The notes beneath the pieces are model-generated. The model searched no databases, was not told the origin of the DNA, and saw only the letters and a list, made by a program, of their open reading frames with translations. A stretch of DNA of 64,000 nucleotides, taken from assembly GCA_016721825.1 (NCBI GenBank), contig JADKHI010000001.1, forward strand, positions 769,084 through 833,083, given 5' to 3'. Within the stretch, counting starts at the first letter, position 1. Every line of letters begins with the position of its first letter. Shown piece by piece: positions 6,959 to 54,919 of the stretch. A program made the position numbers and the translations under genes. This DNA comes from Flavobacteriales bacterium. GTDB taxonomy: Bacteria > Bacteroidota > Bacteroidia > Flavobacteriales_F > PHOS-HE28.

Positions 6959-8995
6959 ATGAACGCTCAACAACCGACTTCGCTTTTTCAACGCGCGCTG
7001 GTCATGGAGGCTGTGAAGCAGTCCTTCGTGAAGCTCGACCCTCGCATCCTGATGCGCAACCCGGTGATGTTCACCGTCGAAGTTGGCACAGCGGTGATGC
7101 TCGTCGTCTCGCTCTGGGTGCTCTTCGGCGGAGGTGGCTCACAGGGCACCCTGGGCTACAACATCGCCATCTTCCTGCTCCTGTTCCTCACCCTGCTCTT
7201 CGCCAACTTCGCCGAGGCCATCGCCGAAGCGCGCGGAAAGGCGCAGGCCAATTCGCTGCGGAAGACCCGCGAGGAAACGCCGGCGAAAGTCGTGGGAGCG
7301 GATGGGAAGATCACGCTGCGTTCCTCCAGCGACCTGCGCAAGGGCGATGTGTTCGTGTGCGAGGCCGGTGACCTGATCGCAACGGACGGCGAGATCATCG
7401 AGGGCCTCGCCAGCATCGACGAGAGCGCCATCACGGGTGAAAGCGCGCCGGTGATCCGCGAGGCTGGCGGAGACAAGAGCTCTGTCACGGGTGGCACGAA
7501 GGTGCTGAGCGATCGCGTTAAAGTCCGCGTGACCAATGAGCCCGGTGAAAGCTTCCTGGACCGCATGATCGCGCTGGTGGAAGGCGCCAGCAGGCAGAAG
7601 ACCCCGAACGAGATCGCGTTGACCATCTTGCTCGCGGGCTTCACACTGGTGTTCATCATCGTGTGTGTCACGCTACAGCCTTTTGCGGGTTATGCGAACG
7701 CCACCGTGACCATCGCGGCGCTCGTTTCACTTTTCGTGTGCCTGATCCCCACCACGATCGGCGGGTTGTTGAGCGCCATCGGCATCGCGGGCATGGACCG
7801 TGCGCTGCGAGCCAACGTGATCACCAAGAGCGGCAAGGCGGTGGAAACGGCGGGCGACATCGACGTGCTGTTGTTGGACAAGACCGGCACCATCACCATC
7901 GGCAACCGCAAGGCCACGGCCTTTCATCCGGCAGCGGGCGTTGACCGGAACATGTTCATCCGTTCGTGTGTGCTCGGTTCACTGGCCGACGAAACACCCG
8001 AGGGCAAGAGCATCTTGGAGCTTGCCGGTGCGGATGTCACCCGTGGGCTTTCGTTGGACGGCGCCGAGCTGATCAAGTTCACAGCGGAAACGCGCAGCAG
8101 TGGTGTGGATATGCCCAACGGTCAACGCATCCGGAAAGGCGCGCAGGATGCGATGAAGAGGTTGGCCGAACGTGCTGGCAACAACGTACCCAGCGATGTG
8201 GACACTGAAGTGAAGCGCATCGCAAGCAACGGCGGAACGCCCTTGGTGGTCGCCGAGAACGATCGCATCTTCGGCTGCATCGAATTGCAGGACATCATCA
8301 AGCCCGGCATCAGCGAACGCTTCGAACGCCTGCGGAAGATGGGCGTGAAGACCGTGATGGTCACGGGTGACAACCCGCTCACCGCGAAGTTCATCGCACA
8401 GAAGGCCGGTGTGGACGACTACATCGCCGAGGCCACACCCGAGGACAAGATGGCCTACATCAAGAAGGAACAACAGAGCGGCCGTCTGGTGGCCATGATG
8501 GGCGATGGAACGAACGATGCGCCCGCCCTTGCACAAGCGGATGTGGGTGTGGCCATGAACAGCGGTACCGCGCCCGCCAAGGAAGCCGGCAACATGGTGG
8601 ACCTGGACAACGACCCCACCAAGCTCATCGAGATCGTGGAGATCGGCAAGCAGTTGCTGATGACACGCGGCACGCTCACCACCTTCAGCATCGCGAACGA
8701 CGTGGCGAAGTACTTCGCCATCGTGCCCGCGCTCTTCATCGCCAGCATCCCGGCCTTGCAGGGGCTCAACATCATGCACTTGAGCAGTCCGGAGAGCGCC
8801 ATCCTTTCAGCCGTGATCTTCAACGCGCTGATCATCCCCGCCCTCATCCCGCTGGCATTGAAAGGTGTGGCCTACAAGCCCATCGGGGCCTCCGCCATCC
8901 TGCGCCGCAACCTGATGATCTACGGCGTTGGTGGCCTCATCGTGCCCTTCATCGGCATCAAGGCCATCGATCTGGTCGTTTCCCTCTTCATCTGA
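6959..8995 (+). CDS. kdpB: potassium-transporting ATPase subunit B (P-type ATPase)
   Basis: DKTGTIT phosphorylation motif, [26 protein letters not shown] hinge motif. 678 aa. Confidence 0.95.
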
Positions 8996-34552: not shown

Positions 34553-35197
34553 CTAAAGGTGCCGCAGCTTCTTCAGCTCGTCAAGGAGTTGAGCGGCGCT
34601 ACCCACCCGCATAGTGATCTGGTTATTCATGTTCTCTCTCAATGCGTCCGCATACGTGCAATGGAACATATGATCGATGTGGGTCTCATTCTCCTCGCGG
34701 TCATTGGATAGCTTGAAGTGCTCAAGATTCAGCTTGTAGAATGAATCAAGGATGGCTGCGGGCATCTTCTCCCGATGATAGTCTATTGAGTAAAACGCCT
34801 CGAATAACAAGCCGTACTTGGACTTGTCGTGCAGACATCGATACACCTCTTGCGGGGGAAGGCGCTTGATGAGGTCACTGTTGAACATTGGCATCTGATC
34901 AATCTGCTTTTTCTTCTCAGCATTGTACTGCTCAATACTGGAGCTCATTATCACCTTCCGCACCTGCTCATAATCTCTGATAAGCCTCTCAGTCTTTGGA
35001 ACCAGAACGTCCTTGACATTGTGTTCAATGGCCTTTCTGAACGCTCTTCTTTGCAAGCCCTCCTTGACCTCATCGTACATCGCTTTAAGGATGAGCGCAA
35101 TTGCGGCGCCGGCGAAGGCAATGAACAGTTTCTCAGCAAGCTCATGTGTCATAAGGCCAAGATATCCAAAGAGCACCCAGCATTCTTTTTCACCCAC
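34553..35197 (-). CDS. hypothetical protein with N-terminal TM helix, encoded in a lower-GC segment
   Basis: 214-aa ORF with non-repetitive, Lys/Glu-rich composition. Local GC is roughly 45-50% against about 61% in the flanks. No recognisable domain. Confidence 0.4.
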   Translation of the reverse strand: MGEKECWVLFGYLGLMTHELAEKLFIAFAGAAIALILKAMYDEVKEGLQRRAFRKAIEHNVKDVLVPKTERLIRDYEQVRKVIMSSSIEQYNAEKKKQIDQMPMFNSDLIKRLPPQEVYRCLHDKSKYGLLFEAFYSIDYHREKMPAAILDSFYKLNLEHFKLSNDREENETHIDHMFHCTYADALRENMNNQITMRVGSAAQLLDELKKLRHL

Positions 35198-35342
35198 GGC
35201 CCGAAGAGGGATACTCTGAGGGAGCAGAACTCAGTGCTTGGCTCGGCGTGAGCGATTGAAGCGGGTACGCCGCAGCGAGGAACGCGCGAGGAGTACGAGC
35301 TAAAAGCGCGACCCGAGGCTTTGCGAGGGGCACGCCCAAAGA

Positions 35343-35480
35343 ACCTACCTGCTCAAGTACATGCTCCGCTCCCCATACACCTGCCTGAAGAACGGATCCT
35401 TCAGGTCCTTGATAGTAGATGGCCTCACCGGTGCCATCTCGGGCCTGAGGCTCTTGTCCACATTGGAGAACTTGTCGGTG
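35343..35480. repeat. R3: near-identical copy of the carB 3' end (one mismatch over the last 70 bp, small indel further in)
   Basis: ORF 35345..35572 (-) ends ...STIKDLKDPFFRQVYGERSMYLSR*, identical to the carB C-terminus. Confidence 0.7.
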
Positions 35481-35481
35481 T

Positions 35482-36558
35482 TCATTCGCTGAGCTCTCGT
35501 TCGATCTCTTTCACGCTGGGCAGGGCGGCACGGAGACCCTTGGGCAAGGTAGCCACCAAGCGCGTACGCCATTCAGCCACGCCGATGGGCTTGGCCATGT
35601 CGCGCAGGGCGTACTCCACCACGAGCTTGTCGTTGTCTTTGCACAGGAGCAGACCGATCGAGGGCTTGTCGTCCGGGTGGCGTAGTTGCTCATCCACGGC
35701 GGTGAGGTAGAAGTTCATCTTGCCCGCATGTTCGGGCTCGAAGGCTTCCATCTTCAACTCCACCACCACATAGCAACGGAGCTTCAGGTGGTAGAACAGC
35801 AGATCGAGGAAGTAGTCCTTGCGGCCCACCTTCAGCGGCACTTGCCTACCCACGAAGGCGAAGCCCGATCCAAGCTCCAGCAACACCTTCTGGATGTGAC
35901 CGACCAGCGCCTGCTCCAGGTCGCGTTCACGTGCATCCGCAGCAATGTTGAGGAACTCGAAGGTGTACGGATCCTTCAAGGTCTGCTGCGCCAGGTCCGA
36001 GCGTTCGGCGGGAAGCGTGCGCTTGAAGTTGGTGAGCGCCTTCCCCTGCCGGCGGTGCGCGTGCGTGGCAACTTGCGCATCGAGCACGGTACGGCTCCAG
36101 CCATTGGCGATGGTGGCCTGCGCGTACCAGAGCCGGTGTTCGGACTTCTTCAGCTTGGTGAGCAGCAGCACGTTGTGCCCCCATGGCAATTGTCCAACAA
36201 GCTGTTGGACAATTGATCCATCTGGATAAGCCTCCGCGAAAGAGCGCATGTACAGAAGGTTCGAGCGAGAAAAACCGCCCATGCCGGGGAACTCGCGGTG
36301 AAGGTCCTTCGCCAGTCGTTCCACCACCTTGCTGCCCCAGCCTTCCTTGTCCTGGCGTTCGATGATCTCCTTTCCGATGTGCCAGTAGAGCAGGACCAGT
36401 TCATGATTGACCGCGAGCGCCGCTTTCAGTTGAGCCGCACGGATACGCGCCTTCACCGCCTCCAGCACCGCCGTGTAATTCTTCGGCAACACGGTCACGG
36501 AAGTCTTCTTCCGCTTCTTCACGGTCCGCAGTGCTGTGGATCTCTTCTTCACGGGCAT
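35482..36558 (-). CDS. YhcG-like PD-(D/E)XK nuclease domain protein (DUF1016 family)
   Basis: Start at ATG 36558 (MPVKKRSTALRTVKKRKK...). C-terminal PD-(D/E)XK core GRKDYFLDLLFYHLKLRCYVVVELK. N-terminal DUF1016_N-like helical domain (ELVLLYWHIGKEI...). Confidence 0.7.
   Translation of the reverse strand: MPVKKRSTALRTVKKRKKTSVTVLPKNYTAVLEAVKARIRAAQLKAALAVNHELVLLYWHIGKEIIERQDKEGWGSKVVERLAKDLHREFPGMGGFSRSNLLYMRSFAEAYPDGSIVQQLVGQLPWGHNVLLLTKLKKSEHRLWYAQATIANGWSRTVLDAQVATHAHRRQGKALTNFKRTLPAERSDLAQQTLKDPYTFEFLNIAADARERDLEQALVGHIQKVLLELGSGFAFVGRQVPLKVGRKDYFLDLLFYHLKLRCYVVVELKMEAFEPEHAGKMNFYLTAVDEQLRHPDDKPSIGLLLCKDNDKLVVEYALRDMAKPIGVAEWRTRLVATLPKGLRAALPSVKEIERELSE
36187..36215. repeat. 29-bp palindrome CAATTGTCCAACA-AGC-TGTTGGACAATTG, copy a, lying inside the nuclease coding sequence
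   Basis: Perfect 13-bp inverted arms. Encodes SIVQQLVGQLP within the nuclease. Confidence 0.8.
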
Positions 36559-36655
36559 GCAACCAAGATAACCGACGCACCGGAACCAACACTTCCGCGA
36601 AAGGCCGAAAGCGCTGCAACTCAATGCCCGCAGGACTTTCCGGACATCTGCCGAT

Positions 36656-36722
36656 CAATTGTCCAACAGGCTGTTGGACAATTGAGGAGATGGTTGAGCA
36701 ATTGTCCAACAAGCTGTTGGAC
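36656..36722. promoter_or_regulatory. two further copies of the 29-bp palindrome (b: 36656-36684, complete; c: 36699-36722, truncated right arm) about 100-165 bp upstream of the nuclease start and abutting repeat R2
   Basis: Copy b is CAATTGTCCAACAGGCTGTTGGACAATTG. Copy c is CAATTGTCCAACAAGCTGTTGGAC followed by GATCG. Confidence 0.5.
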
Positions 36723-36731
36723 GATCGAACA

Positions 36732-36826
36732 TACCTGCTAGTACATGCTCCGCTCCCTATACACCTCCCTGAAGAACGGATCCTTCAGGTCCTTGATGAA
36801 GTAGATCGCCTCGCCGGTGTTCTTCA
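36732..36826. repeat. R2: degenerate copy of the carB 3' end (about 95 bp, a few mismatches and a 3-nt deletion creating a premature stop)
   Basis: Would encode MKNTGEAIYFIKDLKDPFFREVYRERSMY*, against carB ...EMKSTGEAIYFIKDLKDPFFRQVYGERSMYLSR*. Confidence 0.7.
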
Positions 36827-36834
36827 TTGCCGGT

Positions 36835-37281
36835 TCATGGGAATACCTTCTGGGTCGTCATGAGCCACGATCGGCAAGCACTATCCATTCCATAGGTCAT
36901 ATCCAGGTACAATGTCAGCGAGCTAGACTCATCGCGCAGAGAACAACTCCATCCTACTTGCACCTTTGGATACACGCGGTTGATAGAATCAATCACCTGG
37001 ACGCTGCCCCAGTATTGCTCCTTGCCAAGCCCTTGCGCCGTGTCCTCGTACTGGATGATGTTCCTCATGTTCTCTTCGCAGAAAGACTCAATCGAGTCCC
37101 GGACCGCGTGAGGTTGAACGAGCACATGAAGTGAATCGTAGTCGGTGGCCCCATTCCACAAAGCGGGATGTTCATTGACCCAAGCTTCAACTTCCTTTTC
37201 ACCCGGTTTCGGTTGGCAACAAGACAGGAGCATGCTCGCAAGGAGCATGACCAGCAATTTCAACCTGAAAGCGTAGATCAA
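36835..37281 (-). CDS. hypothetical lipoprotein
   Basis: N-terminal MLLASMLLSCCQ lipobox. 148-aa ORF located between carB 3'-end copies R1 and R2. Confidence 0.4.
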   Translation of the reverse strand: MIYAFRLKLLVMLLASMLLSCCQPKPGEKEVEAWVNEHPALWNGATDYDSLHVLVQPHAVRDSIESFCEENMRNIIQYEDTAQGLGKEQYWGSVQVIDSINRVYPKVQVGWSCSLRDESSSLTLYLDMTYGMDSACRSWLMTTQKVFP

Positions 37282-37283
37282 AA

Positions 37284-40095
<2,812 letters not shown>

Positions 40096-40251
40096 GTCCG
40101 GATGGTATCCGGGCCGCGAAAGTACCCAGCGCGGAATGGGCAAATGAGGGAATGTGGAAAATGTGGGGCGATCGTGGAGAAGTGCGAGAGGCCATGGGCA
40201 CATGCGCACATTCCCACATGGGCACATGAACATGCTTATCACCTTTACCAC

Positions 40252-41079
40252 GTGCATTCCACCTCCTCCTTCACCCACGGCCCCACCACCCTCGCCTACC
40301 GCAGCTACGGTCACGGGCCTACGGTGGTACTGGCCTTCCACGGCTTCGGGCGAACGGGTGCCGACTTCGCGCTGTTCGAGCCGATGCTGGCCGAGCGGTG
40401 CACCATTCATGCCTTCGACCTGCACTTCCATGGCGAAAGCAGCACGCCGGGCGAACGGGCGCATGACCCTTTCACGCCGGCGGAACTGGCGGCCTACTTC
40501 ACGGCCTTCGCGGACCACCTTGGTGCGGACAAGCTGACCCTGCTGGGCTACAGCCTTGGCGGCCGCATCGCCCTGAGCCTACTGAACACCATGCCGGATC
40601 GTGTGGCGAACGTAGTGCTGGTGGCGCCGGATGGCCTGAAGACCCGGCCCTGGTACCGGGGACTGGCCGCTTCCCGTTTCGGGCGCCACCTCTATGGCCG
40701 TTTCGTGGAGAACCCGCACCGGGTGCACGCGATCATGAACACCCTGCATGGTGTCGGCTTAATGCGCCCCAAGCTGCACCGTTTCCTTATGGGGCAGACG
40801 GACAACAGGGTGAAACGGCAGCAGGTGCACGACGTGTGGCTGAGCTACCGCCTGATCGAACCGGACTTGTCGGACGTGGGGCGGGTGCTGCGGGAACGGG
40901 CCATCCCCCTTCACCTCTTCCTCGGGCGCACCGACAGCGTGATCCCCGCCCACCTGGCGCAGGGGCTGAAGAGCCAGGCACCCGAGCTGGTGCATGTTCA
41001 ATTGCTGGAGGCCGGCCATGTGTTGCTGACCCCGGAACTGGCCCCTCCGATCGCGAATGTCCTTGGGAAAGGGGCATGA
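40252..41079 (+). CDS. alpha/beta-fold hydrolase
   Basis: HGFGRTGADF oxyanion region and GYSLGG nucleophile elbow. Start uncertain: GTG 40252 is preferred; ATG 40144 would add a His/Cys-rich leader. The ORF-track N-terminal 270 aa is antisense to carB and spurious. Confidence 0.6.
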   Translation: MHSTSSFTHGPTTLAYRSYGHGPTVVLAFHGFGRTGADFALFEPMLAERCTIHAFDLHFHGESSTPGERAHDPFTPAELAAYFTAFADHLGADKLTLLGYSLGGRIALSLLNTMPDRVANVVLVAPDGLKTRPWYRGLAASRFGRHLYGRFVENPHRVHAIMNTLHGVGLMRPKLHRFLMGQTDNRVKRQQVHDVWLSYRLIEPDLSDVGRVLRERAIPLHLFLGRTDSVIPAHLAQGLKSQAPELVHVQLLEAGHVLLTPELAPPIANVLGKGA

Positions 41080-54812: not shown

Positions 54813-54875
54813 GACCTTTCCGAAAAGGGACCGCAAATATAGGATCTTTTACTTCTAACGGATCGCCTGTGAATG

Positions 54876-54904
54876 AAAAAGGCCGGTGCGGCACCGGCCT
54901 TTTT
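54876..54904. terminator. intrinsic terminator hairpin (AAAAA-GGCCGG-TGCGGCA-CCGGCC-TTTTT) downstream of the sugar-transferase gene
   Basis: Palindromic GC stem flanked by A5 and T5, so it would function in both orientations. Confidence 0.5.
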
Positions 54905-54919
54905 CATGAACCGCAGGGT

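Follow-up and report, generated by a model that had tools for sequence, protein, structure and literature searches.

A self-complementary palindrome within and beside the yhcG/DUF1016 nuclease gene of a Flavobacteriales cassette and across the gene family

The nuclease gene and its three palindromes

The DNA analysed here, in the following called the window, is a stretch of 64,000 nucleotides from the assembly of a Flavobacteriales bacterium, in which a 29-bp palindrome occurs inside and upstream of a nuclease gene of the yhcG/DUF1016 family. Searches against Pfam assigned the product of this gene to DUF1016_N (E = 5e-46, 156.6 bits) and YhcG_C (E = 6.5e-65, 218.2 bits), with scores above the gathering cut-offs of 32.8 and 32.5 bits, respectively. 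The catalytic motif E-D-E(I/L/V)K described for YhcG/DUF1016 nucleases (Kosinski 2005, PMC1189080) is present, with E228, D252, and L268-K269 forming invariant alignment columns (VVVELK at residues 264-269 of the window protein). The YhcG nuclease domain was also reported to be similar to archaeal Holliday-junction resolvases and YraN (PMC1189080). The DUF1016/YhcG family has no assigned function and is very large, at least 8000 matches having been scored; its members are found on plasmids, integrative and conjugative elements, prophages, and restriction-modification loci, and it is listed as a defence candidate. The window nuclease itself matched the PADLOC profile hidden Markov models of the phage-defence candidate PDC-S02 (E = 8.4e-154), which is a candidate system only and is named without functional tests in the literature found. 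A protein identical to the window nuclease occurs in a Flavobacteriales metagenome-assembled genome (MAG), while a sequence search of the PDB with the nuclease protein resulted in no match.

A pattern search for CAATTGTCCAACA-N3-TGTTGGACAATTG revealed three occurrences in the window, here designated a, b, and c (Table 1), and none in 100 shuffles; outside these copies, the 13-mer half-site had no further occurrence across the window. Read on the minus strand, copy a comprises the codons TCA ATT GTC CAA CAG CTT GTT GGA CAA TTG (S IVQQLVGQL), followed by P. An earlier note on this DNA had described a 29-bp palindrome with perfect 13-bp arms, encoding SIVQQLVGQLP within the open reading frame (ORF) of a YhcG-like nuclease and recurring twice upstream of its start codon, and all of this was confirmed, with copies a and b being exact. 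The note had also placed copy c directly against duplicated carB sequence, which is correct, but had taken this copy to be truncated at position 36722. It is of full length and slightly degenerate, its outer right arm reading GACGATCG instead of GACAATTG. Copy c forms the 5' edge of the nuclease cassette and adjoins the carB 3' fragment; it is also the point at which the homology between the window and two related loci (L001 and L002; loci used for comparison are numbered in this way throughout) starts.

Table 1. Features of the nuclease locus and the adjacent carB region in the window.
Feature	Position	Strand	Description
Palindrome a	36187-36215		13-bp perfect arms, 3-nt centre, 0 mismatches; in frame within the nuclease gene
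Palindrome b	36656-36684		0 mismatches; extends to 15-bp perfect arms with a 1-nt centre at 36655-36685; proximal upstream satellite, 98-126 nt 5' of the nuclease ATG at 36558
Palindrome c	36699-36727		2 mismatches; distal upstream satellite, 141-169 nt 5' of the ATG
DUF1016_N + YhcG_C PD-(D/E)XK nuclease gene	35482-36558	minus	358 aa
Conserved non-coding stretch	36559-36654	minus	between palindrome b and the ATG
Box TTATCTTGG	36563-36571		4 nt upstream of the nuclease ATG
True carB 3' end	37284-37483		
Duplicated carB 3' end, copy 2	36723-36827	minus	directly upstream of palindrome c
Duplicated carB 3' end, copy 1	35342-35477	minus	begins 4 nt past the nuclease stop
Small ORF in carB copy 1	35345-35484		MNTDKFSNVDKSL...DLKDPFFRQVYGERSMYLSR; its ATG overlaps the nuclease stop (ATGA)
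Putative lipoprotein	36835-37281	carB strand	148 aa; own cassette, without palindrome
Orphan ORF	34553-35197	carB strand	214 aa; cassette after the nuclease

Perfect palindromes with arms of at least 9 bp were detected only seven times in the whole window, compared to 0-6 in block shuffles, where the arms usually measured 9-11 bp. In copy a, all 13 pairs are complementary, for which P = 1.5e-7 was obtained given the peptide and the local codon usage, with a mean expectation of 5.1 pairs. Three of these pairs are dictated by the amino acids, and the remaining ten place a wobble position opposite a fixed position; the codons ATT, CAA, GGA, TTG, and GTT used here are minority codons. Folding of the three copies as single-stranded DNA yielded -14.7, -14.0, and -7.3 kcal/mol.

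The stretch between copy b and the start codon contains blocks that are conserved across loci whose intervening sequence otherwise diverges. One of them is the box in front of the ATG, which is conserved as TTAYYTTNGG at 4-8 nt 5' of the ATG in all close homologues (upstream regions of L001-L013 and L091-L194). It resembles TAnnTTTG, the -7 promoter element of Bacteroidota, and may be such an element, in which case the mRNA would have no leader or almost none. Three further ideas on this region were discarded. The upstream copies are not remnants of a duplicated gene, since their likeness to the in-gene region ends at the palindrome plus 3 nt. An antisense ORF runs in frame through copy b, so that an inversion between b and a could be imagined to give an alternative N-terminus; this ORF looks like a GC-rich artefact and the inverted variant was not seen. 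Finally, an exchangeable segment bounded by b and a was not supported, the region from -100 to +100 around the ATG being the most variable stretch.

The palindrome across the yhcG/DUF1016 family

Homologues were sampled from 80 genomes of 80 species (51-86% protein identity) belonging to Flavobacteriales, Cyanobacteria, Verrucomicrobia, Acidobacteria, Proteobacteria, Planctomycetes, and Methanosarcinales. Within residues 100-135, 65 of the 80, including bacteria and archaea, had perfect arms measuring 9 bp or more; in the remaining c. 900 nt of the gene, such a palindrome was present in only seven of the 80. The palindromes (arms of 9-18 bp, centres of 0-5 nt) occupy the codons of an I/F-V-Q-Q-x-V-G/A-Q-L/I motif, and IVQQxVxQ[LI]PWGHN is the most conserved motif among the close homologues. 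Even plasmid homologues with 34-40% identity carry an in-gene palindrome, namely PIVVTLSRQLSW in a Citrobacter plasmid homologue (34%; CAATTGTCGTGAC-GCT-GTCACGACAATTG), AATTCTCGTATCA-C-TGATACGAGAATT in one from a Klebsiella plasmid (34%), and an array of three palindromes with arms of 18, 12, and 11 bp in one from a Segatella plasmid (40%). Some other proteins of the family likewise revealed in-frame arrays of two to five palindrome units with a period of 36 nt (12 codons).

Many lineages carry satellite copies, which lie close to either end of the gene or form in-frame tandem repeats. Close homologues at other genomic sites (L001-L013) displayed one or two perfect upstream palindromes in addition to the in-gene copy, a layout as in the window, and a perfect counterpart of copy b is found at a distance of 96-98 nt from the start codon in L001, L002, L003, L009, L010, L131, L159, and L194. 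In E. coli, L021, L051, and L102, the satellite is located downstream rather than on the promoter side. The yhcG gene of E. coli K-12 (L217, NC_000913.3) harbors four in-gene palindromes (8110-8240), the largest with 15-bp arms at codons 126-136, and a fifth, related palindrome follows 16 nt past its stop codon (8971-8995). The palindrome thus characterizes yhcG/DUF1016 genes as a family, that of E. coli K-12 among them, which goes beyond the single-locus view of the earlier note. No mention of the palindrome was encountered in the literature found on DUF1016, yhcG, and PDC-S02, and no prior description of a conserved hairpin in yhcG-type genes was found.

The distribution outside this sample was determined with the exact 29-mer as query, in which one arm position could be S and the centre was left free, in one metagenome and one viral collection. 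Both matches in the viral collection were in-gene. Among 120 metagenome loci, about 90 carried the palindrome at residue c. 115 of a homologue and about ten just upstream or downstream of one. Other metagenome loci include relics such as a frameshifted fragment (L113/L152) and a truncated gene (L115). In L105, a truncated DUF1016 gene is followed by the palindrome and hsdS, in L183 the gene has given way to a ParE-type toxin-antitoxin pair and a palindrome pair is retained, and in L201 a copy lies beside what we take, from an unchecked reading, to be the C-terminus of an IS110-like transposase. Many metagenome contigs end at a palindrome or no more than c. 60 nt from it (L005-L008, L099, L115, L177, L187), the probable cause being that assembly tends to stop at repeats that are inverted or present in several copies; truncated database proteins annotated as DUF1016 N-terminal may therefore partly be artefacts.

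These data bear on the possibility that the palindrome is a dispersed repeat, similar to repetitive extragenic palindromic (REP) sequences or miniature inverted-repeat transposable elements (MITEs), that landed in or near the gene by chance. It is palindromic and multicopy, and a few metagenome matches (L120/L122, L134, L143, L157) showed no DUF1016 gene within the fetched locus. Nevertheless, the window holds only three copies, all at the nuclease gene, both viral matches and most of those in the metagenome lie in or beside DUF1016 genes or their relics, and the in-gene position is constant across the family, which leaves a dispersed origin extremely unlikely. A dispersed element at many unrelated loci is what the earlier note had named as evidence against a link to the nuclease gene; the specific tie to this gene that it pointed to has been borne out.

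Pairing, codon choice, and the nature of the element

To characterize what is conserved, 63 distinct 51-nt segments were compared with slid partner columns and with 500 shuffles. Paired cells amounted to 89%, versus 27-38% when the partner column was slid, and double-sided changes were detected in 11 of 13 pairs (84 cells), values that were reached by none of the 500 shuffles. Coupled replacements include changes at the amino acid level, e.g., GTC..GGA (V..G) versus GTG..GCA (V..A), CAA..GTT versus CAG..GCT (V to A), GTGAAACA/TGTTTCAC (Q..G to K..S), CAATTG/CAATTG (I..L) versus AATTTG/CAAATT (F..I), and TTTCTGCCACA/TGTGGCAGAAA (FLPQAVAEI). Changes between G and A residues go with the third base of the Val codon, and changes between V and A with the third base of the Gln codon. 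In the comparison of orthologues suggested in the earlier note, the peptide was not found to be specified by different codons; a palindrome is retained through compensatory changes. The property that is kept was thereby shown to be the strict Watson-Crick self-complementarity of each copy and not its sequence.

Compensatory changes are a classic signature of RNA structure, and an RNA hairpin in the mRNA was considered as an alternative. It could be processed by RNase III or another enzyme, stabilise the transcript, slow down translation, or be bound by the encoded protein. The in-gene copy is necessarily transcribed and the stems are stable; copies b and c would, according to this explanation, act in read-through transcripts from carB. 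However, G·U pairs are avoided even where the preferred codon would give them. In the Gly/Ala codon, the third base was A in 47 of 48 cases and G in one, while elsewhere in the same 54 genes A accounts for 15% and G for 27%; similarly, the last Gln codon was CAA in 47 cases and CAG in two, with CAA at 37% elsewhere in the genes. Among the rare mismatches, G·T (4) is no more common than A·C (4). This avoidance of wobble argues for DNA, or for a mutational process at the DNA level, over a typical RNA helix. In addition, a covariance-model search of Rfam 15 resulted in no family at the gathering score, only sub-threshold matches to miRNA-like hairpins being obtained, and satellites lie upstream of the likely promoter as well as downstream of the stop codon. 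On balance, an RNA hairpin appears quite improbable as the explanation of the element.

A second alternative is a sequence-specific operator, i.e., a duplex dyad bound by a homodimeric repressor (the DUF1016 protein or a host factor), with upstream and in-gene sites cooperating by DNA looping in the autoregulation of a toxic nuclease. The occurrence of the same dyad upstream of and inside the gene recalls lac O1/O2 or gal OE/OI, symmetric changes in half-sites would be expected if a dimer co-evolves with its site, and the position of copy b is fairly constant in many loci. The constant distance of c. 97 nt from the ATG may, however, simply be inherited, since the intervening blocks are homologous. 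Moreover, intragenic auxiliary operators such as lac O2 and gal OI are sequence-specific for one repressor and do not covary family-wide, whereas the yhcG palindromes vary in spacing and sequence. The arms of non-coding copies are separated by 2 nt in L001, L002, L011, L091, and L145, but by 3 nt in the window and L003; TCC/GGA and TGC/GCA arm variants occur together in one locus; and the copies of an array in one gene differ in sequence, each being self-complementary. The sequences also differ widely between phyla, so that no conserved host factor fits, and the downstream satellites lie away from the promoter. Strict pairing together with a spacing of 2 or 3 nt favours an intrastrand DNA hairpin or cruciform over both an RNA hairpin and a rigid dimer operator. 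Of the three roles put forward in the earlier note, the operator is thus the least favoured, and we regard it as improbable.

The main rival is a neutral one, namely an ancestral inverted repeat that perpetuates itself without function, being kept perfect by template switching during replication. Mutations in one arm would be copied or reverted, the protein would tolerate the resulting changes, satellites and tandem copies would be by-products of slippage or template switching, and junctions would reflect the fragility of palindromes. This explanation accounts well for the strictly Watson-Crick pairing without wobble, for arms that change together, amino acid changes included, and for local tandem duplications with a 36-nt period. 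Quasipalindromes are known template-switch hotspots in E. coli, where arms are homogenised at the DNA level in a strictly Watson-Crick manner (PMC7202029). They are known as mutational hotspots and are not known as features conserved at one codon position of a family in two domains of life. Against a purely neutral origin, the same codons are kept in 65 of the 80 species and down to 34% identity, in both domains and against codon usage, while long palindromes are rare in the remainder of the same genes. Distant lineages independently show satellites, on the upstream side of the gene in some and on the downstream side in others. Uncorrected imperfect copies also persist, among them copy c, K-12 palindromes #2 and #3, and a hybrid copy b in L094, L115, L121, L149, and L183, which combines an old left arm with a new right arm (G·A mismatch); correction by template switching is consequently not overwhelming. 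We consider the neutral explanation unlikely.

Some observations point to exchange between copies. In L159, the upstream copy shares the rare arm variant TTTTGC/GCAAAA with the in-gene copy and has the reverse-complement centre, i.e., it is an inverted copy. Together with the hybrid b copies, this pattern suggests short-patch conversion between copies. Among 85 in-gene centre triplets (metagenome matches L091-L210), 44 were GGC/GCC, 28 GCT/AGC, and ten GGT/ACC; these three reverse-complement pairs may indicate either extended pairing (G..C) or flipping of the centre.

carB cassettes, mosaic alleles, and a putative hairpin-nuclease module

The last 100-140 nt of carB are present three times in the window, the true end and two copies (Table 1). 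They separate small cassettes across 34553-37483, all of them on the carB strand, and copies b and c of the palindrome are satellites at the 5' edge of the c. 1.25-kb nuclease cassette, which is inserted in the duplicated carB 3' end. The mini-ORF coupled to the nuclease gene in carB copy 1 has been called as a gene of 48-76 aa in L218, L220, and L002. Common carB junctions were identified in the window, L002, L009, L010, L011, L206, and L218, other Flavobacteriales MAGs being among them. At the upstream junction, the carB stop is followed by 2-8 nt and then the palindrome; at the downstream junction, 4-9 nt past the nuclease stop, carB resumes c. 138 nt before its own stop. The series looks as if insertions, of Campbell type or driven by homology, had taken place one after another at the 3' end of carB. 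As a side observation, a frameshift at ...GDSITVA|(P)AMTLSDRTYQRMR (c. 39335-39345) divides carB of the window itself into two overlapping ORFs, 39220-40518 and 37284-39335; either the assembly is wrong at this point or carB is a pseudogene in this MAG.

A cassette moved by a dedicated site-specific recombinase, with the palindrome as its classical att or attC-like site, would fit the position of copy c at a cassette edge beside duplicated carB 3' ends, the array of cassettes downstream of carB, and the conservation of structure rather than sequence that also characterizes attC. However, no integrase or recombinase was found among the window ORFs between 25 and 45 kb, which cover c. 10 kb to each side. 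With 0-3 nt, the centre is shorter than tyrosine-recombinase sites require. Furthermore, the ORF contains the main copy in every lineage, and most lineages are without a cassette array; the palindromes are perfect, lacking the extrahelical bases typical of attC. A classical att site is for these reasons very unlikely. With respect to the recombination site of the cassette considered in the earlier note, a classical att site has no recombinase within that range, while a putative role at cassette junctions is compatible with the evidence. A weak IS200-like Y1 fragment (Pfam Y1_Tnp, E = 6e-6) was identified c. 1 kb downstream of the nuclease cassette in L218 (3182-3586), at this locus only.

Comparison with known systems revealed partial similarities. 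As in integrons, whose attC sites are acted on by IntI, hairpin sites conserved in structure and not in sequence lie at gene-cassette boundaries. In contrast to integrons, there is no adjacent IntI with attI among the ORFs from 25 to 45 kb; the yhcG palindromes are short, the main copy is in frame inside an ORF, and the satellites are here 5' of the gene, whereas integrons have an imperfect attC hairpin at each cassette 3' end, and the lipoprotein cassette carries no palindrome at all. REP/REPIN sequences with their REP-associated tyrosine transposases (RAYTs) also consist of hairpin palindromes beside the gene of the enzyme presumed to act on them. The enzyme at the window locus is a PD-(D/E)XK nuclease and not an HUH Y1 transposase, the weak fragment in L218 not being general, and REPs occur in tens to hundreds of dispersed intergenic copies, while the yhcG palindromes are confined to the gene and its edges, both within the window and among the metagenome matches.

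Rickettsia palindromic elements resemble the yhcG palindromes in that palindromic DNA is tolerated in frame within coding genes. Those elements are mobile insertions of c. 100-150 bp in many unrelated genes, in comparison to 20-40 bp at one homologous position in a single family across phyla. The sites of shufflons and invertible segments (sfx/Rci, gix/Gin, hsdS repeats) are likewise located inside ORFs at the borders of exchangeable modules; they are, however, conserved in sequence, are not self-complementary hairpins, and need a linked recombinase, and no inversion was seen here. DUF1016 genes were reported to be enriched beside programmed inversions (PMC9881135). The site of a homing endonuclease would be present in gene-less alleles and disrupted by the gene, while here the palindrome is intact inside the gene (empty carB alleles were outside the scope of this comparison). 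Altogether, the yhcG palindromes share traits with attC, REP/RAYT, and shufflon or gix sites but lack defining features of each; by analogy, they would belong to the kind of system in which a structure-specific DNA hairpin site is paired with a dedicated enzyme.

The family genes themselves turned out to be strongly mosaic. Maximum chi-square analysis of protein and DNA sequences showed, e.g., that P0009 and P0033 share 67% identity in the N-terminal but 98% in the C-terminal part, with breakpoints clustering near residues 100-135. In E. coli, the yhcG locus is unusually polymorphic, 1596 genomes having 90-95% identity to K-12; IS3, IS1, and replacement alleles also occur. In 718 of 5426 genomes, an allele was found that keeps the N-terminal part, loses K-12 homology exactly at the edge of palindrome #4, and has the nuclease half replaced by an orphan ORF, while an IS1 junction lies inside palindrome #4 in E. 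coli MIN9. Frequent recombination in yhcG-type genes is claimed on this basis, a precise hotspot is not. Recombination exactly at the palindrome is likewise not claimed, in view of the rate heterogeneity and the offset of the resolved breakpoint described below.

The best-supported description of the element is that of a hairpin or cruciform conserved in structure at the DNA level, with satellites at the gene edges. Building on this description, we tentatively favour a reading, plausible but short of probable, in which the 29-mer represents, at this locus, an ancient DNA palindrome that is conserved in structure, is intrinsic to yhcG/DUF1016 genes, and is handled by a structure-specific enzyme. 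The palindrome would act as DNA, either extruded as a cruciform or folded into a hairpin where the DNA is single-stranded, and the enzyme would bind and/or cut it. Since a cruciform is a four-way junction and the encoded nuclease has a Holliday-junction-resolvase-like domain, the gene's own product is the most economical candidate for reader and cutter. A site of this kind would be one where DNA is broken and rejoined, as would fit palindromes that border the cassette or an exchangeable half of a gene, and it could feed back on the expression of its own gene. Both the role as a site for the adjacent nuclease and that as a cassette recombination junction, as proposed from the sequence, are compatible with the evidence. 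A further step, which we regard as doubtful though possible, is that yhcG/DUF1016 genes are self-contained modules of a hairpin and a junction-resolvase-like nuclease that drive autoregulation and/or exchange of cassettes and modules in a widespread candidate defence gene. In such a module, the protein's own DNA target would be written into its coding sequence and copied to the gene edges, and DNA structure would dictate some of the protein sequence.

Several points weigh against a hairpin read by its own nuclease. Binding or cutting of hairpins, cruciforms, or junctions by DUF1016 proteins is putative, and Foldseek with an AlphaFold model of the window nuclease (predicted local distance difference test score of 58.8, poor in the nuclease domain) returned nothing at E <= 0.001. 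Arms of 13 bp are short for spontaneous cruciform extrusion. Template-switch correction of quasipalindromes would yield the same strict pairing and concerted arm changes without any function, and an RNA role of copies b and c may be considered on their position alone. The clustering of breakpoints at residues 100-135 is confounded by faster N-terminal divergence, and the sole Flavobacteriales breakpoint resolved at the DNA level (L218 versus L219) is located outside the palindrome, c. 190 nt further downstream. The junction cases amount to a small set of individual examples, and contig ends at palindromes can be assembly artefacts.

Regarding its significance, the built-in hairpin offers a first concrete handle on what DUF1016 nucleases recognise, and since E. 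coli K-12 carries the palindromes, the question is directly testable there. Covariation of amino acids forced by base pairing, in two domains of life, bears on how conserved protein motifs are read and is relevant when hidden elements of DNA or RNA are sought by codon-aware methods. Should the palindromes favour breakage and rejoining, this would help to explain why alleles are mosaic, genes truncated, and cassettes arrayed at these loci; should the connection with the gene's own nuclease be confirmed, it would represent a new class of cis-element and enzyme system.

Apart from the nuclease locus, the longest perfect palindrome of the window is located at 54873-54907 (ATGAAAAAGGCCGGTGC-G-GCACCGGCCTTTTTCAT, 17-bp arms). 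In appearance it is an intrinsic terminator working in both directions, and it has no relation to the palindromes of the nuclease gene.

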